Counted from the first letter of the stretch, positions 8,913 to 34,782 are shown. The stretch is DNA of 64,000 nt from an uncultured Planctomycetales bacterium (GCA_964456925.1 CAYWCX010000001.1:10800-74799); one strand, 5' to 3'. Program-made: numbers and translations. Notes: a model not told the origin generated them from the sequence alone.

Positions 8913-8926
8913 TACAATACCAATAC

Positions 8927-9225
8927 GGAGACGTTTTCCTCCCCAAAGCGGACAGTGTCTTGAGATAATCAGCGAAGGAAAGCTTTAGTTAAATTTTACG
9001 GTTTTTGCTGGAGCGCACATTAAGATTTTTATGGCAGGAGTGCACAAGGGATTACGAGCCGCTGGAATACGCTTGCCTTACGATAGCCTACTGATGGAAG
9101 CGGCGAGTAAACCGTAGTGCACGGCGTAAAAATCCAGTGCGCGAAGCAAAACCGCAAAATTTAGCTGGAATCTCTATTCGTTCATTATTTGAGACACTGT
9201 CCCGATTGACGAGGAAAACGTCTCT
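8927..9225. repeat. Palindromic repeat element copy C1: ~180-bp rod-forming core at 8988-9168, nested inside extra outer inverted repeats of about 48 bp (8927-8975 and 9181-9225)
   Basis: The core shares 85-90% identity with C2 (34530-34701) over GCTGGAGCGCACATTAGGATTTTTACGG...AAGGGATTACG...GTAAACCGTAGCGCACGGCGTAAAAATCCAGTGC. The 5' and 3' halves are reverse complements. Outer repeat: GGAGACGTTTTCCTC...GGACAGTGTCT on the left versus AGACACTGTCC...GAGGAAAACGTCTC on the right. Confidence 0.85.
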
Positions 9226-9232
9226 ATAAGTA

Positions 9233-10489
9233 CTAGAAGTATTCCTGGTATACTTCCCTGACTTTATGGAATGCCTTAACCAGGACATTACGGGGAGGCT
9301 GGGGAGCGTATAAGGTGTGCGCCTGTTCGCGGTGCAGGGACTGGCATATCAAGCCAAGACTGGTCAGGTAAGTGAGATAGCGCTGACCGGAAAGGGAATC
9401 GTAACGGTTGGCGAGACCGGCAATCTCGGGATTAAGGAGACGGCCGAGTTTTATCGAAATACCCAGATTGCTCTCCAGGGATTCCAGGAACCCCTCCAGC
9501 ATCACCGTCCTGCCGACGCAGATAAAATTGGCAACCCTCTGGGTAGGCACCATCTTATCCATTTTTTCCTTGATGGTCTGGCAGATACGTTTTGCTTCGC
9601 GGGTAGTAAGCTCTACTACCGCTTTTTCCTTGATCGGCTTGTAAATGTCGCGTTTCTTAACCAGGATTTCCTTATCCTCGGTTAACCGGTTATGCTCGCC
9701 CACAAAACCGTGCTGGCGTTTAATCTCCTCTGCCAGTTCAAACGGTATTTTGAGCTCGTCCGACAATCTCGCGGTTATGTCATCCCCGCCGATGGTAAGG
9801 ATTTCTACGTCGCAGAACCGGCCGTTTCGGAAAACGAGCATTTCGGTAATATCGCTGCCGATGTCACAGACTATCTCGACCTCTTCGGGGGGGGCGCTGC
9901 CGAATACCGCCGCGCTGGTAGCCAGGCCCGAGAAGAAAAAATCCCTGATTTCGTAACCGGCTTGATTGACGGCACGGGCAAAACTTTGTATACCCGCCAG
10001 TTTCGCAAAGATAAGGTAAAGGTCAACCTCGAGGCGGTGGCTGTAGAGCCCCGCCGGATTTATAATGTTGGTTTTGGAATCAATGGCGTAGCTGTAAGGA
10101 ACGCAATGGATAATCTCTTCTTCAAGGCTCGAACCGAGAATGCGCGCCTGTTCGTTAACCTTATAGATATCAGAGGGGGTGATGACCTTATTGCCGCGTT
10201 CGGCAAGCGGAATTATGGCGCGGCTGTGCCGGCTGGAAATATCCTGACCCGAGATGTTGACCGAAAGGTATTTTATATTTATGCCGCAGGCGGCTTTGAG
10301 GCTGGTCAGGACATTGCCGATAGCCCCTACCAGCTCAATCAGGTCAACCACCGTGCCCTTTTTAACCCCCCGGGACTCCGCGCTCTCCAGGAATATATCG
10401 CTTATGCGCCCCTTTTTAATCCGGGCAACCGCGGCGGCAATCTTGCTGGAGCCGATGTCCAGCGCACAGAGGTAATTACTGTTTAGCAT
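9233..10489 (-). CDS. ftsA: cell division protein FtsA
   Basis: LDIGSSKI actin-fold N-terminus and a C-terminal amphipathic helix (LVKAFHKVREVYQEYF). Follows ftsQ in the division cluster. Confidence 0.9.
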   Translation of the reverse strand: MLNSNYLCALDIGSSKIAAAVARIKKGRISDIFLESAESRGVKKGTVVDLIELVGAIGNVLTSLKAACGINIKYLSVNISGQDISSRHSRAIIPLAERGNKVITPSDIYKVNEQARILGSSLEEEIIHCVPYSYAIDSKTNIINPAGLYSHRLEVDLYLIFAKLAGIQSFARAVNQAGYEIRDFFFSGLATSAAVFGSAPPEEVEIVCDIGSDITEMLVFRNGRFCDVEILTIGGDDITARLSDELKIPFELAEEIKRQHGFVGEHNRLTEDKEILVKKRDIYKPIKEKAVVELTTREAKRICQTIKEKMDKMVPTQRVANFICVGRTVMLEGFLESLESNLGISIKLGRLLNPEIAGLANRYDSLSGQRYLTYLTSLGLICQSLHREQAHTLYAPQPPRNVLVKAFHKVREVYQEYF

Positions 10490-11222
10490 CTTCCTTGAAT
10501 TTTATTACGGGGTCCTTAAACCTTAAGTCAAAGTATTTAATCCTGCTCAGTTCGTTCCTGGTCTGCCGCATAAGATTCTCTAAAAGCTCAACCCGCTCCC
10601 TGATATTATCCTGGCCGATCCTTACCTCCAGGCCGTTATCGGTAACAAAAAAGGCATTAACGGGGTTGGCGACATTGACGACCTTAATATTAAGGTAAGG
10701 GGCGAGCGGCCTTTTCTTAACCTCCCTGACGATGCTGACCGCCAGGCCGAGTTCCTGCACGTTGTATTTTTTACCTATCTTGGGGCCGAAGATTTTAGTC
10801 TCCAGGCCCAGGATAACCGGCAGGGCATTTTCTTGAGGCTCCCCCTCGGCATCCAGAAGCACCAATTCTTCATCCACGCAGAAATAACGGTATAGCTTGA
10901 CGTACGCCTGGGGGGTGCGTTTGACAAAATCCACCAATAAACGGTTGGGCAGAATCCTGATGAGTCTTACCTTCTTATAGGCGGGGTGGAATTGCCAGAT
11001 GCGCCCGGATTCTTTTTTCAAATCAATATTAAAGATGCCCTGCCCCTTGAAATAGGAAAAGTTCTCCTTCTCCCCGCCGCCCCTTACCGCTATCTCTTTA
11101 ATCTTAAAATAATCCAGGTTCTTTAAACCCCGAAACAACGCGGCTACCGTCAGGTAAATTACAACCAGAAACACTAACGCCAGGATTAATTTAAAGGGTA
11201 TTCTAAGCCGCGGTTTTTTCAT
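10476..11222 (-). CDS. ftsQ: cell division protein FtsQ/DivIB
   Basis: N-terminal TM segment plus POTRA-like domain, at the expected position between ddl and ftsA. Confidence 0.8.
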   Translation of the reverse strand: MKKPRLRIPFKLILALVFLVVIYLTVAALFRGLKNLDYFKIKEIAVRGGGEKENFSYFKGQGIFNIDLKKESGRIWQFHPAYKKVRLIRILPNRLLVDFVKRTPQAYVKLYRYFCVDEELVLLDAEGEPQENALPVILGLETKIFGPKIGKKYNVQELGLAVSIVREVKKRPLAPYLNIKVVNVANPVNAFFVTDNGLEVRIGQDNIRERVELLENLMRQTRNELSRIKYFDLRFKDPVIKFKEDAKQ

Positions 11223-12186
11223 ATGCCAATTCCAGTAGTTTAATGCAAAGTTCGCCGAACCCTATGCCGCTGTTGCGGGCTGCCTTGGGTAAAAGACTGG
11301 TGGCGGTAAAGCCCGGGATGGTATTAACCTCCAGAACAAAAGGTATATTATCATTATTCAGGATGATGTCAACCCGGCAACAGCCAAAGCAGCCCAGGAG
11401 CCGGTGTGCCGCCAGGCCTGCCTCTTGAATCTTGAGGCCGACCTGCGGTTCCAGTTCGGCAGGGACAACATACTCTGTGATGCCGGACTGGTACTTGGCA
11501 TCATAGTCAAAGAACCTGTGTTTGGGCACAATCTCGATTACCGGAAGAGCCCTGTCATCCAAAATGCCCACCGTCATCTCTCTGCCCGGAATATACTGTT
11601 CAACCAGCGTCCTCTCGTCAAATGTAAAGGCCTTTTCCAGTGCCTGGCCCAACTCCTCGATTTTATCGATAATGGATAGACCTATGCTGGAGCCGTTGGT
11701 TGCGGGTTTAACTACGAGGGGCGGGGAAAAACGCTGCCCTAAACTCCACCCGGCAAGATAAGAAGATTTTTCTACTACTTCATAAGGCGGCACTGCCAGA
11801 CCCTTCTCTTCGAAAATCCGGCGCGAGGCGATTTTATCCATCGCCAGCCTGCTGGCAAGGACGCCTGAGCCGCTATAGGGCAGCCGTAACCGCTCAAGGA
11901 TTTCCTGGATCTGGCCGTCTTCTCCGAAACGGCCGTGCAGCGCCAGAAACACGCAGTCTAAATGCTGGGATTTCAAAAGCGCGATGTTCTGCTCGACATT
12001 GTCGCTCTGGATATCTATGGCTGTGACATTAAGCCCTAAATCCTTAAGCGCCTCATAGACTGCCATCCCGGATTTCAGGGAAATCTCCCTCTCGGTAGAC
12101 GGCCCTCCCATCAATACGCCGACCCTGCCGAATTTCTTTTTGCTCGCCAGGGCGCGCTTGTGTCCTTTTGCCTTTAATTCTTCCAT
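11203..12186 (-). CDS. ddl: D-alanine--D-alanine ligase
   Basis: MGGPSTEREISLKSG N-terminal motif and an ATP-grasp fold. Confidence 0.9.
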   Translation of the reverse strand: MEELKAKGHKRALASKKKFGRVGVLMGGPSTEREISLKSGMAVYEALKDLGLNVTAIDIQSDNVEQNIALLKSQHLDCVFLALHGRFGEDGQIQEILERLRLPYSGSGVLASRLAMDKIASRRIFEEKGLAVPPYEVVEKSSYLAGWSLGQRFSPPLVVKPATNGSSIGLSIIDKIEELGQALEKAFTFDERTLVEQYIPGREMTVGILDDRALPVIEIVPKHRFFDYDAKYQSGITEYVVPAELEPQVGLKIQEAGLAAHRLLGCFGCCRVDIILNNDNIPFVLEVNTIPGFTATSLLPKAARNSGIGFGELCIKLLELAYEKTAA

Positions 12187-13091
12187 ATCCTGATTTCAGG
12201 CTCTAATGCGATTTTAAATTTATTTTTTACCTTTTTTCTTAAGGCCTGCATTAAAACCAGGACATCGCGGCTGCTTGCGTCCCGGCGGTTGACGATAAAA
12301 TTGGCGTGCCTGCTAGAAACTTCGGCGCCGCCGATTTTTTTGCCTTTGAGCCCCGCCAATTCAATCAACCTTCCCGCAGAATCTCCGGCAGGATTGCGGA
12401 AGACGCAGCCGGCTGAAGGCAAGCTTAAGTCCTGGCTCTGCCTGCGGCGGCAGAGGCGCTCCTTGATAACGGCCTTAACCTTATCTTTATTCCTGCGCCT
12501 TAAATTAAAACGGGCGCTTAAGATTATATATTTGTCTAACCCCGATTTGCGGTAACTGAAATTTATCTTTCCGGAAACGAGGTTTTTAATATTGCCATTA
12601 TAGTCCATAACCCGTACCCTGTCTATTAAATCTGCGATGCTCTGTCCCTGGCGGGACTGGCCGGCATTCATAACCAGCGCTCCTCCCACCGTTCCGGGGA
12701 TACCCGCCAGGAATTCGTATCCTCCGAGATCCCTGCGCACCGCTGCGCTTATAAACCCGGCCAACTTTACCCCTGCGCCTGCTTCAACGGACCTGCCTTG
12801 GAAAATCAATTTTTTAAAATAAGGCGCGCTTAATCTGATAACCAGGGCATTTACGCCCTTATCGTCCACCAGAAGATTGCTCCCCGCGCCCAGGATTAAA
12901 ACCCGCACCTTTTCTCTCTTGGCTAAAGAGAGCAGTAACCGCAGGTCTTCTTCATCGGCAGGCTCGGCAAAATAGCGTGCCCTGCCTCCGATCTTAAAGG
13001 TGACACGGTCCTTGAGGGGCTCAAGCAACCTGAACTTGCCTTTTAATCCGCTCTGCCAGTTCATCGCAACTCTTGACGATATCGCCGGCAC
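12174..13091 (-). CDS. murB: UDP-N-acetylenolpyruvoylglucosamine reductase
   Basis: TFKIGGRARYFAEP FAD-binding motif. The true start is probably the internal MNWQSG near 13064; either start overlaps the murC 3' end. Confidence 0.85.
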   Translation of the reverse strand: MPAISSRVAMNWQSGLKGKFRLLEPLKDRVTFKIGGRARYFAEPADEEDLRLLLSLAKREKVRVLILGAGSNLLVDDKGVNALVIRLSAPYFKKLIFQGRSVEAGAGVKLAGFISAAVRRDLGGYEFLAGIPGTVGGALVMNAGQSRQGQSIADLIDRVRVMDYNGNIKNLVSGKINFSYRKSGLDKYIILSARFNLRRRNKDKVKAVIKERLCRRRQSQDLSLPSAGCVFRNPAGDSAGRLIELAGLKGKKIGGAEVSSRHANFIVNRRDASSRDVLVLMQALRKKVKNKFKIALEPEIRIWKN

Positions 13092-14397
13092 CCAGAATAA
13101 TCACGAGGTCACCGGGCTTAATGATATTTAAGATATGGCCGACAATCTCTTCTTTAGCCAAAAAATGCACTGCTTTATCCGGGCTAGATTGTTTTATCTT
13201 CGCGCCTAAGCCCTTTGCGTCTATCCCCGCAATAGGCTTTTCGCCTGCCGGATAAATATCGGTGAGGACCAGGTAATCCGCAGAGTCAAAACTCCCGGCG
13301 AATTTATCCCAAAGCAGTTTAGTGCGGGTGTAACGGTGCGGCTGGAATACCGCGATTATCCTGTCGGGTTTTAACTCCCGCACCGCGGCAAGCGTCGCCC
13401 GGATTTCCGTGGGATGATGCGCATAATCATCGATGAGCAGGTAATCGGGACTGCTGAATTTTACTTCCAGCCTCCTGCGGGAACCCTGGTAACCGCCGAG
13501 GGCCTTCTTGATTAGCCCCGGCTCCAGCCCTAATTCCAAACCCAGGCCTATCACTGCTAGGGAGTTGGAAATGTTATGCAGTCCGCCGAGGGCAAGTTCG
13601 AACCTTTCTACGAATTTACCCTGCTTAAAACAGTCGAATTGCGAACTCAAGGCACGGAGAGCGATGTTAGCGGGATAAATATCCGCGCCTTCTTCTAAGC
13701 CGAAGAAAATATGCCTGCCTTCATAGCCGGCCAGGAGACCTTTCAGCGCCGGGTCGTCGCTGCAAGCAAAGACGCAACCGCCTTTTTTAGTCTGGTAGAT
13801 GAATTTGCGGAAGGCCTCCGCCTCATTTTTGAAACTGCGGTAATAATCCAGGTGTTCGTAATCGATATTGGTAATAATAGAATAATCGGGATGGTAATAA
13901 AGGAATGAGCCGTCGGATTCATCGGCTTCGGCAACAAAGAATTTTCCCTCGCCTAAAGAGGCGTTGCTGTCAATGTTCCTGAATATCCCGCCTACCGCAA
14001 TGGTGGGTTTTAAACCCGCCTCCAGCAAGAGACAGGAAACCAGTGATGAGGTAGTGGTCTTGCCGTGGCTGCCGGTAACGGTAATCACGGTTTTGTCCCG
14101 CATCAGCTCTGCCAGGGCCTCTGCGCGCTTTTTAAGCGGGATATTGCTCTTCTTAGCCTCTCTTATTTCAGGATTATCCTCTTTAATCGCCGAGGAGTAA
14201 ACGACTACATCGGCGCCTTTAATATTGGCCGGGCTATGGCCGAAGAATATCTTCGCTCCCAAACGCTGGAGTTCTGCAGTAACCCTGCTTTCTTTAAGGT
14301 CTGAGCCGCTTACATTAAAACCCCGGCGCAGGAGCAGATTGGCAATCCCGCTCATCCCGATACCGCCGATGCCGATTAAATGATAATGTTTAGCCAT
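13021..14397 (-). CDS. murC: UDP-N-acetylmuramate--L-alanine ligase
   Basis: GIGGIGMSGIA and GSHGKTTT Mur-ligase motifs. Confidence 0.92.
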   Translation of the reverse strand: MAKHYHLIGIGGIGMSGIANLLLRRGFNVSGSDLKESRVTAELQRLGAKIFFGHSPANIKGADVVVYSSAIKEDNPEIREAKKSNIPLKKRAEALAELMRDKTVITVTGSHGKTTTSSLVSCLLLEAGLKPTIAVGGIFRNIDSNASLGEGKFFVAEADESDGSFLYYHPDYSIITNIDYEHLDYYRSFKNEAEAFRKFIYQTKKGGCVFACSDDPALKGLLAGYEGRHIFFGLEEGADIYPANIALRALSSQFDCFKQGKFVERFELALGGLHNISNSLAVIGLGLELGLEPGLIKKALGGYQGSRRRLEVKFSSPDYLLIDDYAHHPTEIRATLAAVRELKPDRIIAVFQPHRYTRTKLLWDKFAGSFDSADYLVLTDIYPAGEKPIAGIDAKGLGAKIKQSSPDKAVHFLAKEEIVGHILNIIKPGDLVIILGAGDIVKSCDELAERIKRQVQVA

Positions 14398-14404
14398 TAA
14401 AAAA

Positions 14405-15517
14405 TTAGATTAATTCCAGTATTGCCTCGCGAAGCCGCGCTGCAGCGCCGCAAGCGTTCAGTCCCTGATAGTTACGGCGCATCCTCTCCAGCTCGCTGCT
14501 ATTATTTAAAATCCCCCCTAAAATACTGCTGCCTTCTCCGCGCGCGAATGCCGCATCATCAATAATAAAGGCGCATCCCCTTTCGCTTAATACCCAGGCG
14601 TTTGCCGCCTGGTGACTGTAGGCATACGGATAAGGCACGAGGAGCGCCGGGATCTTAAATAACATCAACTCCGCAATGGTAGTCGCTCCTGCCCGGGATA
14701 TTATGAGATCCGCGGCACTGTAGGCATATTGCATGGCATTAGAAAAAGCATAGACCCTCGCCTCCACTGCGCTCTGCCGGTATTGCTCCCTGACGGCTCC
14801 ATAATCCTTATTCCCGCTTAGGTGTATCACCTGGATGCGATGCTTCCGCGCCAAGGAAGGGACTATCTTTAAAAATCCGCTGTTAAGACTATGGCTGCCC
14901 TGGCTGCCTCCGCTCACCAGAAGCGTAAACTTATCCTGGCTTAATGCGAAATAATCCCGTGCCTTTACCTTATCTACCGGTGCCATTTCCCTGCGCAGGG
15001 GGTTACCGGTAATAATTATTTTTTTTTCGTAACATTTAAGGTAATCGGCGGTGGCTCCAAAGGAAAGCGCAATGCGGTTGCTGAACAATGCAAGTAATCT
15101 GTTTGCCCTGCCGGGTATGACGTTCTGCTCGTGGATTAAGGTGTTCCTGCCGCCGGCGCGGGCGAGCAATATCAGGGGCACGGATGCCATACCTCCGAAA
15201 CCCACCACTACAGCAGGCCTGAATTTCAATAACGCCCAGAGTTCCTCGGCAACGCCCTTAAAAAATTTTAATATACTCATAATATTGCCTAAACCAAGAC
15301 TTAATTTAATGGGTGAAAAGGAAACATACCTTAGCGGGCATTCCAAATCTCCTATACGGTCCCTGATGCTGCCCTGCGGTAAAACCAAAAGGGTCTCAAT
15401 CTCCGGCGCACCGTCTTTGAGGCTGTCCAGGAGGCTGAGCGCCGGAAAGATGTGTCCGCCGCTGGAACCCGTCACCGCCAGTACCCTGTTTTTTCCCCGG
15501 CCGCACGATGGTCTCAT
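14405..15517 (-). CDS. murG: UDP-GlcNAc:undecaprenyl-PP-MurNAc-pentapeptide GlcNAc transferase
   Basis: VLAVTGSSGGHIFPA motif. The track ORF carries a 52-codon 5' extension. The likely start is MRPSCGRGKNRVLAV at 15517, which overlaps the ftsW stop by 4 nt. Confidence 0.88.
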   Translation of the reverse strand: MRPSCGRGKNRVLAVTGSSGGHIFPALSLLDSLKDGAPEIETLLVLPQGSIRDRIGDLECPLRYVSFSPIKLSLGLGNIMSILKFFKGVAEELWALLKFRPAVVVGFGGMASVPLILLARAGGRNTLIHEQNVIPGRANRLLALFSNRIALSFGATADYLKCYEKKIIITGNPLRREMAPVDKVKARDYFALSQDKFTLLVSGGSQGSHSLNSGFLKIVPSLARKHRIQVIHLSGNKDYGAVREQYRQSAVEARVYAFSNAMQYAYSAADLIISRAGATTIAELMLFKIPALLVPYPYAYSHQAANAWVLSERGCAFIIDDAAFARGEGSSILGGILNNSSELERMRRNYQGLNACGAAARLREAILELI

Positions 15518-16608
15518 GGGTATTCTCCGGTGCGGGCGATATTCATAAGTATCCCGACGCTGATGATATCGAAAATAAAGGATGAGCCGCCGTAACTTAT
15601 AAAAGGTAAAGGCAATCCTTTGGTAGGCAGTAAGCCGCAGGATACGCCGATATTGATGGTGGCCTTCAGGCAAATCATCAGGATGAGACCGAGGGCCAGG
15701 AAATATCCGAATTTATCCTGCGTGTTCTTGAGGATCTTCAGGCACTCCTGGATAAAAATAATAAAGAGCGTTATTACCGCAATCGTCCCAAGCAGCCCCA
15801 GTTCTTCCCCGATGATGGAAAAGATAAAATCGGTATGCGCCGCGGGCAGGTAAAAGAGCTTCTGTTTAGAATGCCCCAGCCCGGTGCCGAATATCCCGCC
15901 TGAGCCCAGGGAGATCTGGGACTGGATAATCTGAAAACCGCTACCCTTGGGGTCGGACCAGGGGTTTAAGAAAGCCAGGATGCGCATCCGGCGGTAAGGG
16001 ACACTGAAGATTAAAAAGTAGAGCGCCGGAAGGCTTAAGAGCACCAGCGAAAAAAGATAAACCATCCTCACCCCGGCAATAAAAAGCATTATTAAAACTA
16101 CGCTGCCGAGGGCGATTATCGTGCCGAGATCCGGCTGCAGCAGTATCAGCAACAATACCGCGCCCAAAACCATTATCGGCGGCAGGAATCCGCGCCAGAA
16201 ACTTCTGATGGCGCTGCCCCGGCGGGCGATAAAATCCGCGATGTACATAATGAGCGCGATATTTGCCAGTTCCGAAGGCTGGAAGCTCAGGAATTTAAAC
16301 CTGAACCAGCGCCTCGCGCCCGCCACCTCCCTTCCGATATGGGGAATAAGCACTAATACCAACAACAGCAGGGAAATCAAAAGCAGAGGCCGGCAATACC
16401 TGCGGAATCTGCGATAATCTACGCTCATGGAGAGGAATGCCAGCACTATGCCGATGAGGATAAAACTGACGTGCCGCTTCAGAAAGAAAAAACTATCCTT
16501 ATACCTCTCCCAGGCGTAGATACTTGAGGCGCTGTAGATCATCACAATGCCGATACAGACGAGCACCACGGTAACGGCAAAGAGACGGATGCGGATATTG
16601 CGTATCAT
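15514..16608 (-). CDS. ftsW: SEDS-family peptidoglycan polymerase FtsW
   Basis: Ten-TM SEDS protein sitting between murD and murG. Confidence 0.9.
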   Translation of the reverse strand: MIRNIRIRLFAVTVVLVCIGIVMIYSASSIYAWERYKDSFFFLKRHVSFILIGIVLAFLSMSVDYRRFRRYCRPLLLISLLLLVLVLIPHIGREVAGARRWFRFKFLSFQPSELANIALIMYIADFIARRGSAIRSFWRGFLPPIMVLGAVLLLILLQPDLGTIIALGSVVLIMLFIAGVRMVYLFSLVLLSLPALYFLIFSVPYRRMRILAFLNPWSDPKGSGFQIIQSQISLGSGGIFGTGLGHSKQKLFYLPAAHTDFIFSIIGEELGLLGTIAVITLFIIFIQECLKILKNTQDKFGYFLALGLILMICLKATINIGVSCGLLPTKGLPLPFISYGGSSFIFDIISVGILMNIARTGEYP

Positions 16609-16611
16609 CTT

Positions 16612-17889: not shown

Positions 17890-17895
17890 GCCTGA

Positions 17896-18984: not shown

Positions 18985-19029
18985 AGCAAGATATTATAGC
19001 AGATAAAATACCAAAAATCCACAGACGCT

Positions 19030-23529: not shown

Positions 23530-23541
23530 AAGTATAAAATT

Positions 23542-23907: not shown

Positions 23908-23909
23908 AA

Positions 23910-24803: not shown

Positions 24804-24832
24804 GATGTCTAGACAGAGGCATTGCACCATCT

Positions 24833-25270: not shown

Positions 25271-25283
25271 AAATCTTTCCTTT

Positions 25284-25346
25284 CCACTTTACTCCACTTT
25301 AATCCACTTTGTAACCCAGTATAGATAAGATTTAAGATTTTGTCAA
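25284..25346 (-). promoter_or_regulatory. mraZ promoter (TTGACA, 17-nt spacer, TATACT) followed by three direct AAAGTGG MraZ-box repeats at 10-bp spacing
   Basis: Minus-strand reading is TTGACAaaatcttaaatcttatcTATACTgggttacAAAGTGGattAAAGTGGagtAAAGTGGaaaggaaagatttATG. Boxes lie at 25284-25290, 25294-25300 and 25304-25310, between the -10 and the RBS. Confidence 0.7.
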
Positions 25347-25406
25347 GACAAAAATTTTCTTAACTTGATGAAACACAAAGGGTAGTGTATAAAGGGGAGG
25401 GGTTTT

Positions 25407-26342
25407 CTAGATGTTGTGGTGGGTATGGGGGAGGAAAAATTTATCCCTCGCCTGCTGCAGGTCAATTTTCACCTGGCGGGCCAAATCCTCTTCGCTGGCG
25501 AATCTTTTTTCATTCCTGATCTTGCCCAGAAACCGTATCTCTACATCCCTGCCGTAGATATCCTTTTTAAAATTAAAGATGTGCACCTCGATATTCCTGG
25601 GCCTGCGACTTTTGATTCTTTTAGTGACGGTCGGGCGGCTGCCGATATAGCAGACGCCGTTAAATTTCCTTTTTCCGACGATGACGCTTGCGGCGTAGCT
25701 GCCTGCGGGCGGAAAGACTTCGTGGTGGGGATTGATATTGGCGGTAGGAAAGCCGAGCCTTCCGGCAAGGGAATCGCCTCTTACCACCGTTCCCAGCACG
25801 CTTACCTTCCTAGAGAGCAACCTTTCGGCGGCGTGCAGTTTACCCTTAGTGATGAGGCTGCGGATACGGCTGCTGCTGACAGCCCGATGATTGACGCGGA
25901 TAATATCAAATACCTTTAAGCAAAAGCGATAAAGCCGCGCCAGTCTTTTTAATAAGCGGTAATCGCCGCTTGCGCCCCTGCCGAACCTAAAATTTTTCCC
26001 TACATAAATATAGCGTGCCCGGATTTTCTCTGCCAGCACCTTCTTAACGAAATCCGGCGCTGTTATACGGGAAAAGGCCGGATTAAAACGGAGCACGACA
26101 GCGACATCAACCCCGAGGTCAGCGATTAATTTTAAACGGTGGTTTAAGGAATGGAGGCTTTCTTCTTTCTGGGGGTGCGGCCAGAAGGTCAACACCACGC
26201 TCCTGCCTTTTATCGCACGTGCCTTCCTAACCGCTGCCTGAAGGATACGGCGGTGGCCGCAATGCATGCCGTCAAAAACGCCCAGCGCCACCACCGCTTT
26301 AGGATAATTCCTGATATTGCTGATGCCGTAAACAACCTTCAT
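25407..26342 (-). CDS. ribF: bifunctional riboflavin kinase/FMN adenylyltransferase
   Basis: VVALGVFDGMHCGHRRIL nucleotidyltransferase motif, with a C-terminal riboflavin kinase domain. Confidence 0.9.
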   Translation of the reverse strand: MKVVYGISNIRNYPKAVVALGVFDGMHCGHRRILQAAVRKARAIKGRSVVLTFWPHPQKEESLHSLNHRLKLIADLGVDVAVVLRFNPAFSRITAPDFVKKVLAEKIRARYIYVGKNFRFGRGASGDYRLLKRLARLYRFCLKVFDIIRVNHRAVSSSRIRSLITKGKLHAAERLLSRKVSVLGTVVRGDSLAGRLGFPTANINPHHEVFPPAGSYAASVIVGKRKFNGVCYIGSRPTVTKRIKSRRPRNIEVHIFNFKKDIYGRDVEIRFLGKIRNEKRFASEEDLARQVKIDLQQARDKFFLPHTHHNI

Positions 26343-27307
26343 TTTGCCAGCGACTGCCTTACCTTCGCTAAAACCTTTTTTCTTACTCCAGCGATGCTGC
26401 CCTTTAAGGTGCAGCCGCTGGCAGTCTTATGGCCGCCGCCTCCGAAAAACGCGGCAATCTTATTTACGTCGACATTGCCCTGGGAACGGAAGTTTACCCG
26501 CACCTCATTTCTGGTGCCGAGGTTCTCTTTAAAAAGAAGCGCCACCTCAATACCTTTAACGATACGGGCAAAACTTAAAACCTGCTCGTTGATATCCAGC
26601 GAGGCGTTCCTCTTTACTAATTGCCGCGGTATCTCGCACCAGACAATCTTTCCCGAAGAATCGCGCTTCATGGAAGAAACTATCCGGCTTAAGAGTTTCA
26701 TATCCCTGAAGGTTATGTCTTCATAAACACGGCGGTAAATATCCACTATATCCAGGCCGTAAGCCACCATCTCTGCCGCCGCCTTATGGGTAGAGGCAGT
26801 GGTGTTGGAATAACGGAATGAGCCGGTATCGCTGAGTATCCCGACGTATAAAAGGGTGGCGATATCCTTGTTAAAGGGAACCTTAAGGCTCTTGTAAAGC
26901 AGGTATACCATCTCCGAGGTTGAAGAAAGGTGCGGCAATACCCAATTTACATCACCGAAGTACTGGTTACTGATATGGTGGTCAATGTTAAGTACGGTTT
27001 TACCTTCGAGGTTAAGTTCTGCGATTTGCCCCGCGCGCCCTAAATCCGAACAGTCCAGAAGCACCAGGCAGTCAAAGGGAACGAACCGCCCCTTATGGAA
27101 CCTTTTAATATTTTCCAACAGCGGCAGAAAACGGTAACTTGCCGGCACGCGGTCGCTATTCATAAGGATGGCGTTCTTGCCGAGGTATTTAAGCAGCATG
27201 AAAAACGCCACCTCGGCGCCGATGGCATCGCCTTCCAGGCTGGTATGGGCAGTAACCAAGAAGTTATCTTGCTTTTTTAATACTGCGCTTAGTTTTTTTA
27301 GGCTCAT
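26339..27307 (-). CDS. nrnA: DHH/DHHA1 phosphoesterase, NrnA-like
   Basis: DHH motif (LNIDHHISN) and DHHA1 motif GGGGHKTASG. Confidence 0.85.
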   Translation of the reverse strand: MSLKKLSAVLKKQDNFLVTAHTSLEGDAIGAEVAFFMLLKYLGKNAILMNSDRVPASYRFLPLLENIKRFHKGRFVPFDCLVLLDCSDLGRAGQIAELNLEGKTVLNIDHHISNQYFGDVNWVLPHLSSTSEMVYLLYKSLKVPFNKDIATLLYVGILSDTGSFRYSNTTASTHKAAAEMVAYGLDIVDIYRRVYEDITFRDMKLLSRIVSSMKRDSSGKIVWCEIPRQLVKRNASLDINEQVLSFARIVKGIEVALLFKENLGTRNEVRVNFRSQGNVDVNKIAAFFGGGGHKTASGCTLKGSIAGVRKKVLAKVRQSLAK

Positions 27308-27644
27308 CTAATTTCTTTATCTGGCCCAGCATCTCTTCGATCCTGATGCTGTATTCGCTGGAATGGTCCTCTTTAAAAATAATCTCGGGCGTGAACCTAA
27401 GCCTGATGCGCTGACCGATCAGCCTGCGGATAAAACCCAGGGCAGAATCCAGGGCCTCCCCAGTGCGGGAGTACTCCTGCCCCTCGCCCAGGACGCTGTA
27501 AAAAACCCGGGCATAGCGCAGGTCCGGGGTCAGTTCGACCCGGGTAATAGTTACAAACCCCAGGCGCGGGTCGTTTAATTCGTCATGTACGATGTTGCTG
27601 ATTTCTTTCTTGAGGGTCTGGGCTACCTTGTCGATCCTCGACAT
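27264..27644 (-). CDS. rbfA: ribosome-binding factor A
   Basis: MSRIDKVAQTLKKEISNIVHDELNDPRLGFVTITRVELTPDLRYARVFYSVLG. Confidence 0.92.
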   Translation of the reverse strand: MSRIDKVAQTLKKEISNIVHDELNDPRLGFVTITRVELTPDLRYARVFYSVLGEGQEYSRTGEALDSALGFIRRLIGQRIRLRFTPEIIFKEDHSSEYSIRIEEMLGQIKKLDEPKKTKRSIKKAR

Positions 27645-27646
27645 CC

Positions 27647-27928
27647 TTAAATCATCTCCATTTCGTAATTAAGCAGTTCCGCAGAGCGAAAGCCCTCTAC
27701 AAAATTCACTACTGCCGAGAGCGTGCTGTTGACGCCGGCGGAAGTTTTCTCCGCGCCCACTACTGCCAGGGTTGCGCGCTGCCATTTATCCTCCCCGTCT
27801 ATCTGGGTGACGGCGACATTAAAGGAATTGCGCAGTCTGGCGCTAAGGCTTCGCAGCACCATTCTCCTGTCCTTAAGGGAATTGCTTGCAGGTATAAACA
27901 GGAATAATTTTAAAATCCCGATTGTCAC
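27647..27928 (-). CDS. DUF503-family protein (YlxP-like), the usual neighbour of rbfA
   Basis: 93 aa with IGILKLFLFIPASNSLKDRRMVLRSLSARLRNSFNVAVTQIDGEDKWQRATLAVVGA, matching the DUF503 pattern. Confidence 0.7.
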   Translation of the reverse strand: MTIGILKLFLFIPASNSLKDRRMVLRSLSARLRNSFNVAVTQIDGEDKWQRATLAVVGAEKTSAGVNSTLSAVVNFVEGFRSAELLNYEMEMI

Positions 27929-27933
27929 CGCGA

Positions 27934-29202
27934 TTAAAGCCCGGCTAATCTGCGCACCAGGGCAATCTCCTCTTCTCTGCTTTTGACTGAACCGTTAAGC
28001 CGGGCGTCTAAAATCTTGCGGAAAATCTTCTGGTAACGCGGCCCCGGCTTCAGGCCTAAGCTTTTAAGGTCATCTCCCGAAATCCGGATGCGCATCCCGT
28101 TGTAGGTAGTAAAGAACACCTCGATATACCGCAGCAGCTTTTTATTACGGTATTTTACCCGCAGCATTATAATGACCTCATAACTTAAAGGCTCCAGCAA
28201 ATGATAAACCCGGCTGGGCCTGATATTAAGCATGCTTAATTGGCGCGCTACCGGCTTAATGTTTTTAGCAGTAAGGAGCCTCTTGGTTTCTCCCCGCGAA
28301 AGGGCAAATTTCTTAGCAATTTTTTTAACCGCCGGCGCATCCAGGGATTCCAGCATCGCCATAAAATAAATCAGCCAGCTGTCCAGGCGCCTGCGCCGCG
28401 GGTAGGTCCTCTTAAACCAGTAAACCTCTCTCTTAACCGCCCTCAAAAGGAGCTGGCTTTTCCGGGAAAGCCTTAAGCCCGTTGCGATAAACTCTAACCC
28501 GATTAGTTTCTGAATTGCCATCAGCGCCTTAAGCGGTTCGGCTTCTTTCAAAATCAGGATTAATTCATCGCGCACCCGATGCGGATGCACTTTATCCAAC
28601 GCCTTCAGCCGCGAGGCCTCTTTAAGCAAGCGCAGGGTATGGGGTTCGTTCTTAAAGTTGTAGCGTTTCTGAAAACGGATAGCCCGAAGCATCCGGGTAG
28701 GGTCATCGATAAAACTCAAGTCGTGCAGGATGCGGATATTTTTCTTGCGGATATCTCTTCTGCCGCCAAAGGGATCCAGGAGTTTGCCGAAATTATCCTT
28801 ATTGATGCCGATTGCCATGGCATTAATGGTAAAGTCGCGGCGTGCCAAATCATCCATCATGTTGCCCGGCTCCACTACCGGCAAAGACGCCGGCGCAGGA
28901 TAGGATTCCCGGCGCGCGGTGGAGATATCTATTTTTAGATATGGACTAATCACTACCGTGGCAGTGCCGAAGCGGCGGTGCCTTACCAGCCTGGCGCCTA
29001 ATTTTACCGCCAGGACCTCGGCAAATTCAATGCCGTTACCCTCCACTACAATATCCGAATCCAGGTTACTCGCGCCCATGATGAGGTCGCGCACAAAACC
29101 TCCTACGAGATAGGCGGGCATCCGATAAGCATCGGCAATGCCGCCGGCCATACTTATCAAACCCTTGAGTTCCGGCGGTATCTTCCTGAAATATTCTTTC
29201 AT
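27934..29202 (-). CDS. cca: CCA-adding enzyme/poly(A) polymerase-family tRNA nucleotidyltransferase
   Basis: GGFVRDLIMG with DSDIVVEG, and RRDFTINAMA (class II nucleotidyltransferase head). Confidence 0.85.
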   Translation of the reverse strand: MKEYFRKIPPELKGLISMAGGIADAYRMPAYLVGGFVRDLIMGASNLDSDIVVEGNGIEFAEVLAVKLGARLVRHRRFGTATVVISPYLKIDISTARRESYPAPASLPVVEPGNMMDDLARRDFTINAMAIGINKDNFGKLLDPFGGRRDIRKKNIRILHDLSFIDDPTRMLRAIRFQKRYNFKNEPHTLRLLKEASRLKALDKVHPHRVRDELILILKEAEPLKALMAIQKLIGLEFIATGLRLSRKSQLLLRAVKREVYWFKRTYPRRRRLDSWLIYFMAMLESLDAPAVKKIAKKFALSRGETKRLLTAKNIKPVARQLSMLNIRPSRVYHLLEPLSYEVIIMLRVKYRNKKLLRYIEVFFTTYNGMRIRISGDDLKSLGLKPGPRYQKIFRKILDARLNGSVKSREEEIALVRRLAGL

Positions 29203-29246
29203 TTCCCTCTCCCTACATACTAAATACTAACTACTACCTACTGCAA

Positions 29247-30134
29247 CTATGGACGCGGGTGAAACATCTTGTGTATGGTCTTAAGCCTGTCCTTATTAAT
29301 ATGCGTATAAATCTGCGTCGTAGAGATATTGCTGTGGCCGAGCATCTCCTGCACCGAACGCAGGTCTGCCCCCCGTTCTAACAAATGCGTGGCAAAAGAA
29401 TGCCTCAGGATGTGCGGCCGGATGGGCTTTTTAATTCCCGCCTGGCGGGCATACCTCTTGATGATCTTCCAGAGGGACTGCCGGGAGATTCTTTTACCGA
29501 AACGGCTTAAAAAAAGGTATTCGCTGGTCTTGCCTTTTAATAATTTAGGCCGTGATACCTCCAGATACCTCTGCACGCTCCTGATTGCCTTTTTACCCAA
29601 AGGTATAACCCGCTCCTTATTCCCTTTTCCTATGCAACGCAAAAAACCCACATCGACATTCACGTTGTCGGTTTTTAAATTCACTGCCTCGGATACGCGC
29701 ATGCCGGTAGCATAGAGTGCCTCGAGTACCGCCTTATCCCTTACGCCCAGCTGCTGCCGTATGTCCGGCTGCTCCAAGAGTTTGGTTACCTCATTTATTG
29801 ATAAGGCATCCGGAATCTTCTTCCAGAGTTTCGGGGAATCAATCAGGCTGCTGGGGTCGGTTTTAAGTATCTTCTCCCTTACGAGGAACCGGTAAAAGGC
29901 CTTGATTGCCGCCAGCCTCCGCGCCACGGAATTGGCAGCCAGGCCCTTATCCTTCTGGGAAAGCATAAAATTAGTAATATCGTTTCGGGTGGTGCGTGAT
30001 AAGGTATCAATGCCTTTTGACTCCAGGTAATTCATATAATAATTCAAGTCTTCCTGATAGGAAGTAATGGTATTGCGGGATAACCCCCGCTCCACCGACA
30101 AATAATTTAAGAAGGCCTCGATTAGTTCGCGCAT
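29247..30134 (-). CDS. xerD: tyrosine site-specific recombinase XerD/XerC
   Basis: N-terminal SAM-like domain and C-terminal R..HxxR..Y catalytic residues (RHSFATHLLERGADLRSVQEMLGHSNISTTQIYTHI). Confidence 0.9.
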   Translation of the reverse strand: MRELIEAFLNYLSVERGLSRNTITSYQEDLNYYMNYLESKGIDTLSRTTRNDITNFMLSQKDKGLAANSVARRLAAIKAFYRFLVREKILKTDPSSLIDSPKLWKKIPDALSINEVTKLLEQPDIRQQLGVRDKAVLEALYATGMRVSEAVNLKTDNVNVDVGFLRCIGKGNKERVIPLGKKAIRSVQRYLEVSRPKLLKGKTSEYLFLSRFGKRISRQSLWKIIKRYARQAGIKKPIRPHILRHSFATHLLERGADLRSVQEMLGHSNISTTQIYTHINKDRLKTIHKMFHPRP

Positions 30135-30135
30135 A

Positions 30136-30755
30136 TCAGTTTAAAAAAGGATTACTTTCCCGTTCCTCCCCGATGGTAGAAGAAGGCCCGTGTCCGGGAT
30201 AAACCACGGTATCATCGGGCAGTTTGAATAATTTCTCCTTGATGGACTTGATAATGGCATTTTCGCTTGCGCCGGGAAAATCCACCCTGCCTACCCCCTG
30301 ATAAAATAAGGTATCCCCGCTAAAAAGAATTTTATTTTCCGGCTGCCTCAAAAGCAGGCATATCCCGCCGGCGGTGTGACCCGGGGTAGCGATTACCTCT
30401 AAGCGTATGCCTCCTAATGCGATGATGTCGCCGTCCCTGACGGTTTTAATCATAACCTTTCCCACGGCATAGGACTGAAAGAGCAACTCCGAAAGATTAA
30501 GGCGGGTATCTTTCAACAGCGCCTCATCATCGGGATGAATGTAAACAGGGACGCCGAACTTGTCGTCGCAGCCGATATGGTCAAAGTGGCCGTGGGTATT
30601 AATAACGATGCCGGGGGTGAGTTTATGTCTAGCCAGGACCTGACGGATTTTCTTCTCGTCTGCTCCGGGGTCGATGATAACGGCCGGGCTTGCGGCAGCC
30701 TCTGCCAGGACATAACAATTCACCGCAAAAGGGCCTACGGTGAGCGTCTCCAGTA

Positions 30756-30768
<13 letters not shown>
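30136..30768 (-). CDS. MBL-fold metallo-hydrolase (glyoxalase II-like)
   Basis: HGHFDHIG metal-binding motif. Confidence 0.85.
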
Positions 30769-34004
<3,236 letters not shown>

Positions 34005-34005
<1 letters not shown>

Positions 34006-34277
34006 CAGAAGGCAATCGTGAAATCTTTAAATTCTCCGCTGGCCGGCTGCCACTCAATCTCGGTATCCTGAATATAGCGGGAAAAATACTGTGTGATTTT
34101 GTCTAAGAATTTTTTCAGGGTCTCTTCGGGCGCTTCGGCGAGAATCTCTACCCTGGAGTCGCCAAGGTTCTTTATCCACCCCGAAACGCCGAATTCCTCG
34201 GCAATACTTCTGGCGGTGAAACGAAACCCCACCCCCTGTACTCTGCCGCTATAATATGCATGCACCTGCTTTTTCAT
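34005..34277 (-). CDS. acyP: acylphosphatase
   Basis: YSGRVQGVGFRF and GWIKNLGDSRVE acylphosphatase signatures. The track ORF starts at a GTG at 34331 and adds an 18-codon extension that overlaps repeat C3. The internal ATG at 34277 (MKKQVHAYYSG) is preferred. Confidence 0.8.
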
Positions 34278-34302
34278 AGAACGCTTTAACGGGCCCTCAC
34301 TT

Positions 34303-34489
34303 GGTCTAATTTTAGGTTTTGCTTCCGGCACGGAAAATTTTTGCCGTCTGCTTCGGTTTACGGCTCGCTCCCGTAAAGACTATCGCCGACACGACATACT
34401 CCCGCTCGCCGTAATCCCTCGCAGACCCAAGCAAAAATAAGATGTCAAAAATTTTCTAATGTGCCTCCAGCAAAATCCTAAAATTTACC
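34303..34489 (-). repeat. Palindromic repeat element copy C3, in inverted orientation relative to C1 and C2
   Basis: Minus-strand reading is GGTAAATTTTAGGATTTTGCTGGAGGCACATTAGAAAATTTTTGAC...GAGGGATTACGGCGAG...CCGTAAACCGAAGCAGACGGCAAAAATTTTCCGTGCCGGAAGCAAAACCTAAAATTAGACC. It has the same architecture and conserved blocks as C1/C2, but its helices are rewritten in a compensatory way. Confidence 0.8.
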
Positions 34490-34529
34490 ACGCTAAGTTA
34501 CCCGTTAATCCTATAGCTGATTACGCTCT

Positions 34530-34701
34530 ATAATTTATGCGTTTCGCTGGAGCGCACATTAGGATTTTTACGGTAGGAGTGCGCAAGGGATTACGCCGAA
34601 CGAAAGGTGGCGAGCCCGCGTTAGCATACTGCCCGAAAGAGAGGCGTAAACCGTAGCGCACGGCGTAAAAATCCAGTGCACGGAAGCGAAAGCATAAATT
34701 A
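34530..34701 (+). repeat. Palindromic repeat element copy C2; its end lies about 4 nt from the tRNA-Pro 3' end
   Basis: ATAATTTATGCGTTTCGCTGGAGCGCACATTAGGATTTTTACGGTAGGAGTGCGCAAGGGATTACG...GTAAACCGTAGCGCACGGCGTAAAAATCCAGTGCACGGAAGCGAAAGCATAAATTAAAA. Its 5' and 3' halves are reverse complements. Confidence 0.85.
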
Positions 34702-34704
34702 AAA

Positions 34705-34782
34705 TGGTCGGGGCGGACAGACTTGAACTGTCGACCTCTTGGTCCCGAACCAAGCGCTCTAGCCAAACTGAGCCACGCCCCG
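34705..34782 (-). tRNA. tRNA-Pro (anticodon CGG)
   Basis: Minus-strand sequence CGGGGCGTGGCTCAGTTTGGCTAGAGCGCTTGGTTCGGGACCAAGAGGTCGACAGTTCAAGTCTGTCCGCCCCGACCA folds as a cloverleaf. Acceptor arms are CGGGGCG/CGCCCCG, the D arm is GCTC/GAGC, and the anticodon stem is CTTGG/CCAAG with loop TTCGGGA. The T arm is GACAG/CTGTC with TTCAAGT, and the CCA end is encoded. Confidence 0.92.

Follow-up and report, generated by a model that had tools for sequence, protein, structure and literature searches.

Undescribed hairpin-forming mobile repeats in genomes of Candidatus Omnitrophota

Three imperfect palindromes of about 180 nt are found in the non-coding DNA of the window, i.e. the whole 64,000-nt stretch that was analysed, as the sequence-only reading had reported. 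C1 is at positions 8985–9168 (+ strand; profile core 9005–9146, nhmmer 85.5 bits), C2 at 34531–34701 (+ strand; profile core 34545–34685) and C3 at 34302–34490 (− strand; profile core 34322–34474). All three are type-A rods, and C3 has a 19-nt insertion on its 5′ side only. A profile search of the window showed no rods beyond these three in 64 kb.

C1, C2 and C3 each fold as a single long rod with a minimum free energy of −73 to −76 kcal/mol, compared with −48 kcal/mol in dinucleotide shuffles. The fold z values are −6.2 to −7.8 (C1, −6.5), and 0 of 200 shuffles fold equally well. At C3, the functional strand (minus in the window) folds at −74.8 kcal/mol and its complement at −60.8 kcal/mol. 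The layout consists of a closing stem, a GGA/GAA loop, a GCGCAC/GTGCGC helix, an ATTA bulge, an A/T-rich helix, and the AAGGGATTACG and GTAAACCG blocks, in keeping with the earlier description; in C1, GGGATTACG is at 9048–9056 and GTAAACCG at 9107–9114. Column identity in an alignment of the three copies is 77%. Reading of this three-way alignment also bears out the compensatory changes first noticed, namely TTTTGCT/AGCAAAA versus TTTCGCT/AGCGAAA in the closing stem, GTGCAC/GTGCAC versus GTGCGC/GCGCAC in the inner helix, and the rewriting of both arms of the A/T helix in C3.

C1 lies between the ftsA stop codon (9233) and the yggS promoter. It is the central part of an extended palindrome of ~300 nt (8928–9226, + strand), whose outer arms, at 8928–8984 and 9169–9226, are an inverted repeat with 85% complementarity and lengthen the rod to this size (DNA fold −72.8 kcal/mol, z = −9.6). 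The outer-arm sequences are confined to contigs of the same genome (L080–L083). Immediately outside the palindrome is the yggS host promoter (TTGACC-N16-TATAAT, 8885–8912, − strand), which has 11 of 12 consensus matches. In the closest relative (L077; FtsA 77%) the ftsA–yggS spacer is 51 bp long and carries neither a rod nor the outer arms, compared with 364 bp in the presence of C1, and the same promoter and gene order are retained. The promoter is also kept in a third species (L079), where the site has a decayed rod; it marks the insertion boundary. Another genome (L112) has an intact rod at this site, in the opposite orientation.

C2 ends 3 nt from the CCA end of a tRNA-Pro(CGG) gene (34705–34782, − strand; ARAGORN; Rfam tRNA, 64.3 bits), which is outside the element. 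A relative (L087) has a rod at the equivalent position, in the same orientation and with the outer stem in common, and this differs from C2 by nine double compensations and two wobble changes. The same tRNA precedes the rod in L087, and accessory islands in L088 and L089. C3 faces C2 head-to-head, and 25 nt lie between its end and the downstream acylphosphatase ATG (34277). Its counterpart in L087 is an apparent decayed remnant, seen by eye only and not detected by the profile search. C3 and C2 form a (−)(+) dimer, with their 5′ ends pointing inward to an unrelated 40-nt spacer (34491–34530). Such dimers recur in other genomes: rod pairs less than 2 kb apart comprise nine distinct (−)(+), two (+)(−) and one same-orientation pair. 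Five of the nine (−)(+) pairs, with 5′ ends inward, each enclose one unrelated ORFan.

A scan with exact motifs yielded 75 further copies in 42 species-level genomes, all of them labelled Omnitrophota or “Planctomycetales” MAGs (Omnitrophota-type MAGs or SAGs), and metagenomes add more than 115 further copies. A profile search gives 219 copies at 172 distinct loci. Sampled rods number up to eight per MAG. The Rfam 15 covariance models do not match the rods even at E ≤ 10; the only Rfam matches in the window are an FMN riboswitch and tRNA, neither at a rod. Blastn (word size 11) of the rods against 5,426 complete E. coli genomes showed no match, and there was none among plasmid and phage records. 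Full-text literature searches found no repeat or mobile-element family for Omnitrophota, and a 2023 survey of 421 Omnitrophota genomes does not mention repeats or transposases. C1–C3 are real copies of a small, non-coding mobile repeat that forms hairpins; the family, hitherto undescribed, is present in many Candidatus Omnitrophota genomes.

The unit is ~170–195 bp and displays conserved purine-rich, non-Watson-Crick loops on one strand. These are GGA/GAA, the ATTA bulge, G.G, AAG/GNA, A.A mismatches, tandem GA/GA and, often, a C-GTAA-G apex. Length variants arise from 0–25 nt inserted only on the 5′ side; no bases opposite the insertion are unpaired. The termini are AATTTTAYGG / CCRTAAAATT, which are semi-conserved, or CCGGCAGG / CCTGCCGG. 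Conservation is best in the interior of the rod and not at its termini, and the core is conserved across many species. The apices are lineage-specific; their sequence is wholly replaced with complementarity retained.

The covariation noticed in three copies is real and family-wide. Paired cells amount to 96.4%, compared with 83.8% after shuffling (0 of 500 shuffles reach the observed value), and 29%–48% in slid controls. Double changes are present in 18 of 30 stem pairs. Wobble cells are rare, 18 of 1668, against 219 double changes, and G-U (17) and A-C (14) are about equal. To take covarying stems alone as proof of selection on an RNA would be too strong, since G-U intermediates are almost absent and about as frequent as A-C. 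A DNA hairpin, or templated correction from one arm to the other, accounts for this pairing at least as well as an RNA does. It was also stated that the strand could not be decided, which is incorrect because the loops are purine-rich on one strand (60%–100% at loop positions, 51% in stems) and this strand folds better than its complement. With RNA parameters the ‘+’ strand is the more stable one in 154 of 164 copies, and with DNA parameters in all 164.

Within a single genome or contig, copies with 95%–99% identity occupy unrelated loci, e.g. L119/L151 (98.8%), L046/L063, L020/L070 and L037/L066. They have sharp ends, which define a unit of 171–197 bp. Some copies have a one-sided tail beyond the hairpin. 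No direct repeats flank the 12 recently duplicated pairs or the copies with a clear outer stem, and recent copies have no evident target motif in common in their left flanks. The unit carries no gene, and its copying to new intergenic sites leaves sharp ends and no target-site duplication. Around a putative gatCAB (assigned by gene sizes) a rod is found at differing positions in three species, and several contigs terminate within a rod. Rods within one genome are more alike than their positional counterparts in other species; judged from these comparisons, this can be read as turnover or concerted evolution. The neighbours are unrelated housekeeping genes with no recurring protein family, some rods flank single accessory open reading frames, and no transposase was found among the adjoining genes. 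A tblastn search of 1.4 Mb around the 219 copies with IS608 TnpA, ISDra2 TnpA and E. coli RAYT (approximate query sequences) gave nothing below E = 0.2, and the failure to find a mobilising enzyme in this search counts against the mobile-DNA reading. Covariation, mobile copies and the absence of a target-site duplication support the suggestion that this is a hairpin-forming mobile or REP-like element.

Classical MITEs (Correia/NEMIS, YPAL, RUP, bcr1, Nezha) have terminal inverted repeats bound by a DDE transposase and produce target-site duplications (TA and others). Like the rods, they are 100–200 bp, non-autonomous and intergenic, form RNA/DNA hairpins and break assemblies. A plain MITE, the outcome set against the original interpretation, does not agree with flanks that lack a target-site duplication, an interior that is better conserved than the termini, and strong covariation throughout the family.

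ERIC (IRU) sequences are 127-bp imperfect palindromes of Enterobacteria, with length variants that arise from insertions at fixed internal sites. They share with the rods an intergenic location, presence in many species, both orientations and internal insertion variants, and for neither has a mobilising enzyme been established. However, the rods are longer, have more elaborate conserved internal loops, make recent transposition directly visible, and show no sequence similarity to ERIC. Membership in the ERIC/REP/BIME group is rejected by the lack of a match in the E. coli genomes searched.

Integron attC sites are also imperfect palindromes with conserved structure and extrahelical bases, recognised as a folded single strand. 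They have RYYYAAC/GTTRRRY boxes at their ends and form same-orientation arrays by an intI gene. The rods have a strongly conserved sequence core instead, lack such ends, and form inverted close pairs and no same-orientation arrays beside intI.

IS200/IS605 transposition leaves no target-site duplication. These elements and the derived PATEs resemble the rods in this respect and in having a strand-specific imperfect hairpin with non-canonical pairs as recognition features. PMC5027513 describes the transposition of IS200/IS605 elements in single-stranded form via hairpins, by ‘peel and paste’. These elements and PATEs carry a pair of short subterminal hairpins on the same strand, their insertion point is 3′ of a fixed tetra- or pentanucleotide, and their orientation is biased, in contrast to the single long rod, which has no evident target motif in recent copies. 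Rod orientation shows no bias relative to the gene strand, a proxy for replication direction. IS200/IS605-type single-strand transposition predicts a replication-linked orientation bias, and its absence by this proxy counts against a mechanism of that type for the rods.

REPINs form single-stranded DNA hairpins with compensatory changes, have an excised form with a 5′ tail, and are mobilised by RAYT transposases (Bertels and Rainey, 2011; PMC3116915). They and the rods alike are extragenic, non-coding, multi-copy elements with a long predicted single-stranded DNA hairpin, compensatory changes, no gene of their own and no target-site duplication, and both survive within a lineage as populations of copies that diverge. 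The one-sided tail of some rods is comparable to the 5′ tail of the excised REPIN. Unlike REPINs, which occur in Proteobacteria, the rods are in Omnitrophota, are about twice as long, and have arms of ~65–80 nt instead of two short inverted REP palindromes (~20–40 nt) with a spacer. REPIN systems have a single-copy RAYT flanked by repeats; no RAYT/Y1 gene was found near the 219 rod copies with the approximate queries. By eye, in a 56-sequence alignment, a possible hairpin within one arm (GCGCAC...GTGCGC) can be seen in C2 but not, for example, in C3 and L014, and covariation supports only the long rod. The T in CCGNAG is variable, so that GTAG/CTAC is not conserved. The two-short-unit architecture of REPINs is lacking in an element that otherwise has their extragenic, multi-copy, compensated hairpin without target-site duplication.

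No target-site duplication is present and no transposase was found nearby, which together with the invariant non-Watson-Crick loops points to an enzyme that acts in trans and recognises a long hairpin in single-stranded form. The rods are considered, with moderate confidence, to be non-autonomous mobile DNA of Candidatus Omnitrophota whose hairpin is mobilised in trans as a single strand, with REPIN/ERIC-like behaviour. An enzyme encoded elsewhere in the genome would recognise the single-stranded hairpin and its asymmetric loops and mobilise the rod in a manner resembling HUH/Y1 ‘peel-and-paste’ elements and REPINs, the intermediate being judged more likely single-stranded DNA than RNA. Stems would covary because the hairpin is the mobilisation substrate, and correction of one arm on the template of the other, together with exchange between copies, may keep them paired without G-U intermediates. 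A rod situated in an operon would be co-transcribed in either orientation and give a long RNA hairpin. Any influence of this hairpin on mRNA processing or stability would probably be incidental and would not explain why the family is conserved.

It is unlikely that the rods are instead a structured non-coding RNA family, i.e. RNA genes or modules such as a protein’s RNA partner (like HEARO/omega-RNA), in which covariation reflects RNA folding and the RNA gene is mobile. Strong covariation, a core conserved in many species and the greater stability of ‘+’ strand RNA over its complement (mean 8.8 kcal/mol) are consistent with such a family, as are the strand-specific purine-rich loops and frequent C-GTAA-G apices. 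Symmetric purine-rich loops, tandem GA pairs and GNRA-like apices are features typically seen in structured RNA, and they count against mobile DNA. Against an RNA family are the lack of an Rfam match and of a recurring neighbour protein gene, the decay of copies at some loci, and G-U pairs in only 1% of cells. No dedicated promoter was found at a fixed position, and promoter-like sites upstream of the rods are not enriched (25 of 138, controls 14–35 of 138). Among 102 copies between co-directional host genes, 43 are sense and 59 antisense to the operon (p = 0.14), and the two groups have equal conservation scores (p = 0.82). The proposal of 6S-like rod-shaped sRNA paralogues is not supported by these data. 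Like the rods, 6S RNA is ~180 nt and rod-shaped overall; however, it is encoded by one or two promoter-driven genes, in contrast to many copies per genome in random orientation, and the rods lack its central bubble open on both strands, their only large loop being the one-sided insertion.

Similarly doubtful is a domesticated cis-acting element, a DNA or RNA hairpin kept at particular gene ends for host benefit, with possible roles in operon punctuation, as an mRNA 3′-end stabiliser or RNase III site, as a transcription or replication insulator, or as a recombination hot spot. The same intergenic sites, often 20–50 nt past a stop codon, carry rods in species whose flanking proteins are only 60%–70% identical, an observation that runs counter to the mobile-DNA explanation. 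This recurrence requires that the sites are hot spots for insertion or that selection has retained the rods for long, and some host-level function is possible. The core is also conserved far beyond expectation for neutral intergenic DNA, and ERIC and Correia elements are precedents. On the other hand, C1 is wholly absent from the closest relative with promoter and gene order unchanged, the copy in L079 has decayed, orientation at a given site differs between species, and rods at corresponding positions resemble each other less than do the copies of one genome. Neither orientation shows a 3′ U-tract, thus the rods are not intrinsic terminators.

There is also a small chance that the rods serve for recognition by a hairpin-specific mobilisation or recombination system of Omnitrophota, which would move the 180-bp unit and also assemble or move single accessory genes lying between two rods with inward 5′ ends, or that they are a structured RNA cofactor from a mobile gene, shared across the group. 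A double-stranded inverted repeat with no hairpin, whose arms are terminal repeats bound by one protein and co-evolve with its specificity so as to mimic covariation, is very improbable: the arms do change jointly with almost no wobble intermediates and the AATTTTAYGG / CCRTAAAATT termini are semi-conserved, but complementarity spans the whole element including the fully replaced apices, the differences between arms (ATTA versus A, GA/GA, A.A, G.G) are invariant and not random, the strands differ strongly in stability, and a target-site duplication is missing.

The bacteria of the uncultured phylum Omnitrophota are mostly ultra-small and may depend on hosts. As a marker the rods are specific to the phylum, and they interrupt assemblies and give rise to spurious open reading frame calls. 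Their more than 170 deeply diverged loci are a natural data set of hairpin covariation without G-U intermediates, and thus a warning that covariation alone is no proof of a functional RNA. Should an enzyme that mobilises the rods as hairpin DNA be found, either the REPIN/RAYT and IS200/IS605 model would apply to a further phylum or a new enzyme would come to light. The head-to-head rod pairs around ORFans may be a route of accessory-gene acquisition in small Omnitrophota genomes.

The sequence-only reading had placed three palindromic elements in the window, and such sequences are indeed found there: C1 at 8985–9168 (plus strand), C2 at 34531–34701 (plus strand) and C3 at 34302–34490 (minus strand), each folding as a single long rod. 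Their MFE is −73 to −76 kcal/mol, compared with about −48 kcal/mol after dinucleotide shuffling (z = −6.2 to −7.8); none of 200 shuffled sequences is as stable. A three-way alignment displays 77% column identity, and the compensatory differences quoted among the copies are correct. Repeat, motif and profile searches show no further copy in the window (nhmmer gives three copies). One inverted match, 9140–9163 with 59580–59603, is inside a coding gene and was discarded as chance.

The minus strand carries almost every gene of the window. C1 lies between ftsA (9233–10489) and a YggS-type gene (8179–8868), the latter with a near-consensus sigma-70 promoter (TTGACC-N16-TATAAT, 8885–8912, minus strand). 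C2 starts 3 nt past the CCA end of tRNA-Pro(CGG), and 25 nt separate the end of C3 from the acylphosphatase gene downstream of it. A comparison of rod strands with neighboring gene directions shows C1 and C2 to be antisense to local transcription and C3 to be sense. The named homologues of the window's FtsA (about 57%–60% identity) and riboflavin synthase (67%–75% identity) are labelled Candidatus Omnitrophica or Omnitrophota; thus the window is, judging by these labels, Omnitrophota DNA. An FMN riboswitch (111.5 bits) is present at 39533–39664 on the minus strand, upstream of a 402 aa gene (38262–39470), which synteny with the related contig L087 indicates to be the DHBP synthase/GTP cyclohydrolase II of the rib operon.

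Three outer-stem subtypes were distinguished. The window copies have type A, AATTTTAYGG-TTTTGCT / AGCAAAA-CCRTAAAATT; type B is TTTTGC-NGA-GGGNTTTGT and type C is CCGGCAGGCTGGGGYC. Inside the outer stem there is a 3×3 purine loop (GGA / GAA) followed by the helix GCGCAC/GTGCGC, an ATTA bulge on the 5′ side that faces a single A, and an A/T-rich helix containing a conserved G.G. An insertion of 0–25 nt follows, on the 5′ side only. Further inward are the helix GTGCGC/GCGCAC, the loop AAG / GNA, an invariant GGGAUUACG / CGUAAACC helix with an A.A mismatch, and the inner block GGC-GA-GC / GC-GA-GCC, i.e. tandem G.A. The apex (about 40–55 nt) is lineage-specific; its pairing is usually kept and C-GTAA-G is often present.

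Other structural assignments were considered and rejected. Folding of each arm as its own hairpin fails in copies such as C3 and L014 (alignment read by eye), and by inspection the GGA/GAA loop does not fit the kink-turn or loop-E consensus. A likeness of GAGCCGTA to group II intron domain V is superficial, given its location on the wrong arm and the lack of any Rfam intron match.

Arms at 8928–8984 and 9169–9226 extend C1 to a rod of about 300 nt. This 57-nt inverted duplication is confined to this genome, and the empty site of a relative lacks it. Palindromes of >300 nt also surround several other copies (L002, L046 and type C); gapped hairpin extension over-extended many copies, so that lengths >250 nt are partly unreliable, and C1, L002, L046 and type C were checked further. 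Another conserved module, CACCGTGCCCGCTCGAATCGGCGAGGCTTTTCTCAAAACCTGCCAGGGCTGGC, consisting of three small hairpins, often comes after a type-C rod and is itself succeeded by the motif GTTACCTATCATTGAAAGTATTACA (flanks of L034, L035, L040, L074, L007, L029 and L020 in the alignment). Elsewhere (L063, L070) it stands by itself or lies in inverted orientation on the 5′ side. Type-C rod and module together are a BIME-like mosaic of repeats.

Rods also give rise to spurious 60–80 aa open reading frames, e.g. at 34521–34766, 34568–34753 and 9088–9288 (minus) in the window and at 2413–2640 in L079, a contig of a related species. The public record behind L079 annotates one of these as a "gene" (75 aa, no Pfam). 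Open reading frame calls over rods are annotation artefacts.

A scan for the exact pattern GGGATTACG-N38-62-GTAAACCGNAGNNNACGG in one genome per GTDB species yielded 75 loci in 42 genomes, with a maximum of eight loci per MAG and several loci at contig ends. The positive genomes are labelled Candidatus Omnitrophota/Omnitrophica, save one "MAG: bacterium" and a few third-party "uncultured Planctomycetales" assemblies. The same pattern gives more than 115 loci in JGI metagenomes, as a lower bound, and a core-profile search of 1.4 Mb of fetched sequence gave 219 copies at 172 distinct loci.

Sequences similar to the rods were not found in E. coli genomes, PLSDB plasmids or GenBank phages. No Rfam 15 family, 6S RNA included, matches the rods at the gathering threshold over the whole window or at E ≤ 10 on both rod regions. 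A search of the literature, including a 2023 Omnitrophota genome survey, found no mention of a comparable repeat. The rod family is real and widespread in Omnitrophota and, as far as could be found, undescribed.

A viral origin was rejected. Three IMG/VR contigs match the 23-nt search motif only by chance, inside a 147 aa open reading frame (phrog_15125; L084 72–515, L085 5114–5557, L086 6512–6955) and without the surrounding palindrome. This open reading frame, unrelated to the rods, occupies the place of a small terminase, with the large terminase downstream and a ParB-methyltransferase fusion on its other side.

Covariation was analyzed in 56 non-redundant copies at 30 pairs, with 500 column shuffles and slid partners as controls. 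Paired cells amount to 96.4% vs. 83.8% in the shuffles, a value reached by 0 of 500, and pairing falls to 29%–48% when partners are slid by 1–3 columns. Changes on both sides are seen in 18 of the 30 pairs, with 219 double-change cells vs. 71 ± 9.5 expected. Because covariation exceeds both controls, the rod structure is real and maintained. Wobble intermediates are present in 18 cells only, and G-U (17) is about as frequent as A-C (14). A functional RNA would rarely show such a pattern, whereas a DNA hairpin would be expected to, as would a quasipalindrome undergoing arm-to-arm templated correction, a described mechanism (PMC7202029).

The sequence-only reading considered the strand undecidable, but two properties assign it. 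Unpaired positions are 60%–100% purine on one strand, and with RNA parameters this strand has the better fold of the two in 154 of 164 copies (mean difference −8.8 kcal/mol); with DNA parameters it does so in all 164 (−6.7 kcal/mol). In C1 and C2 the functional strand is plus in the window, in C3 minus. The conserved entity is the single-stranded form of one defined strand. The selection on structure first proposed from the covarying stems is upheld as to maintenance of the structure; the wobble scarcity and the strand asymmetry qualify that inference.

Numerous pairs of copies share 95%–99% identity over exactly 171–197 nt although they occupy unrelated loci, frequently of one genome or contig, and similarity is lost sharply beyond either end. 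L119/L151 (98.8% over 173 nt), L046/L063, L020/L070, L064/L069 and L037/L066 are such pairs. No direct repeats or common target motif were found in the flanks of near-identical copies; some units have a short one-sided tail.

The ftsA-yggS site shows both presence and absence of the element. In the closest relative found (L077; FtsA 77% identical) the gap is 51 bp with no element, vs. 364 bp in the window, and the yggS promoter (TTGACC-N16/17-TATAAT) is kept on the far side of the site in both. A third species (L079; FtsA 72%) has a copy in the orientation of C1 whose core motifs and fold are gone (27 bits, z = +0.7), and a fourth has an intact rod in the opposite orientation. These data show the rod to be a small non-coding hairpin unit that enters new intergenic sites by copying, leaves no target-site duplication and, at single loci, decays or disappears. 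The suggestion of a REP-like mobile hairpin is supported by the near-identical copies, their sharp ends and the empty site.

The same region displays two further features. The yggS promoter is also found at 11273–11301 in L077 and at 2673–2701 in L079; since a near-consensus promoter is conserved in three species (70%–77% FtsA identity), housekeeping promoters of Omnitrophota look canonical. In all three, yggS and proC come immediately after a dcw cluster (mur genes, ftsW, ddl, ftsQ, ftsA), with no ftsZ after ftsA at that locus (window 8179–10489; L077 10001–11992; L079 1129–3422).

Downstream of tRNA-Pro, L087 has one rod with a C2-like outer stem and a C1-like apex; it differs from C2 by nine double compensations and two wobble changes. 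At the position of C3, L087 has an apparent decayed remnant by eye, which the profile search did not detect. The rod position at a three-gene block, presumed from gene sizes to be gatCAB, differs among three species. Copies of one genome are more alike than are positional counterparts from different species, so turnover, inter-copy exchange, or both drive the evolution of the family.

Clustering of flanking open reading frames gave no recurrent protein family, transposase or other, beside the rods; the neighbors are unrelated housekeeping and signalling genes (ABC ATPase, GGDEF/HD-GYP, AIR synthase-like, TPR, enolase, FtsA, YggS, acylphosphatase). Relative to co-directional flanking genes, 43 rods are sense and 59 antisense (p = 0.14), and profile scores are the same in both orientations (p = 0.82). 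Promoter-like sites are not enriched upstream of the family loci, and no dedicated one was found in the window. The outer stem has T-runs 5′ and A-runs 3′ in both orientations and hence no 3′ U-tract. Together these results argue against an independent RNA gene, the 6S-like RNA first offered as a reading, a terminator, and an orientation-dependent mRNA element as the driver of conservation. A mobile structured RNA is given a low probability.

The rod works like REPINs, ERIC and MITE-type repeats, yet fails to show what defines each specific family. It has no REP doublet, and three approximate Y1 transposase/RAYT queries gave no tblastn match in 1.4 Mb. Unlike classical MITEs, rods show no target-site duplication, and they have no sequence similarity to ERIC. 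The R boxes and same-orientation arrays of attC are lacking, as are the central bubble, Rfam match and promoter of 6S RNA. With respect to PATE, the unit is a single rod with no target motif.

A mobile hairpin is, taken as a whole, the probable explanation. The rod would be mobilized in trans, the responsible enzyme recognizing the folded single strand together with its invariant non-Watson-Crick loops. An ssDNA intermediate is favored over RNA because wobble pairs are scarce and conservation is independent of host transcription direction. REPINs with RAYTs (PMC3116915) offer a precedent, as do IS200/IS605 elements (PMC5027513, PMC3201880). Speaking against the IS200/IS605 model, no orientation bias relative to gene strand, no fixed target motif and, in the 1.4 Mb searched, no Y1 gene were seen. 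The specific HUH/ssDNA step is proposed tentatively, at somewhat below even chances.

A selfish element leaves one main fact not fully explained: species with flanking proteins no more than 60%–70% identical have rods at the same intergenic sites, which requires hot spots or long retention. A domesticated cis element is unlikely. A considerably more novel mechanism is similarly improbable, and pure co-evolution of double-stranded TIRs is very improbable.

Targeting of tRNAs was rejected, since only about four copies adjoin them. In two other Omnitrophota the stretch from tRNA-Pro(CGG) to acylphosphatase/ligA holds accessory islands (L088 2409–6711; L089 5885–9318) with AbiEii, MNT/HepT toxin-antitoxin pairs and an HSDR_N protein. 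This makes the 3′ flank of the tRNA a general integration hot spot and may account for the two rods at that place in the window.

Rods less than 2 kb apart have their 5′ ends facing each other in 9 of 12 distinct pairs, vs. 25% by chance. The nine (−)(+) pairs are C3/C2 (34302–34701), L059 1746–2093, L091 715–1186, L074 5256–5642, L019 1977–2797, L051 1699–3009, L096 5575–7099, L134 4526–5800 and L200 806–1837. Consistent with this arrangement, the median non-coding space at 172 loci, measured from the profile core, is 107–145 nt on the 5′ side and 45–61 nt on the 3′ side, whichever way the neighboring genes point. Two (+)(−) pairs enclose housekeeping genes (an ABC ATPase; ScpA and RuvB). Five (−)(+) pairs enclose exactly one ORFan each, with no Pfam domain and mutually unrelated. 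In L051 a rod-ORF332-rod block separates the DHH gene from ribF; in the window these two genes directly overlap (26339–26342). On this small sample of 12 distinct pairs, rods may bound or attract accessory-gene insertions.
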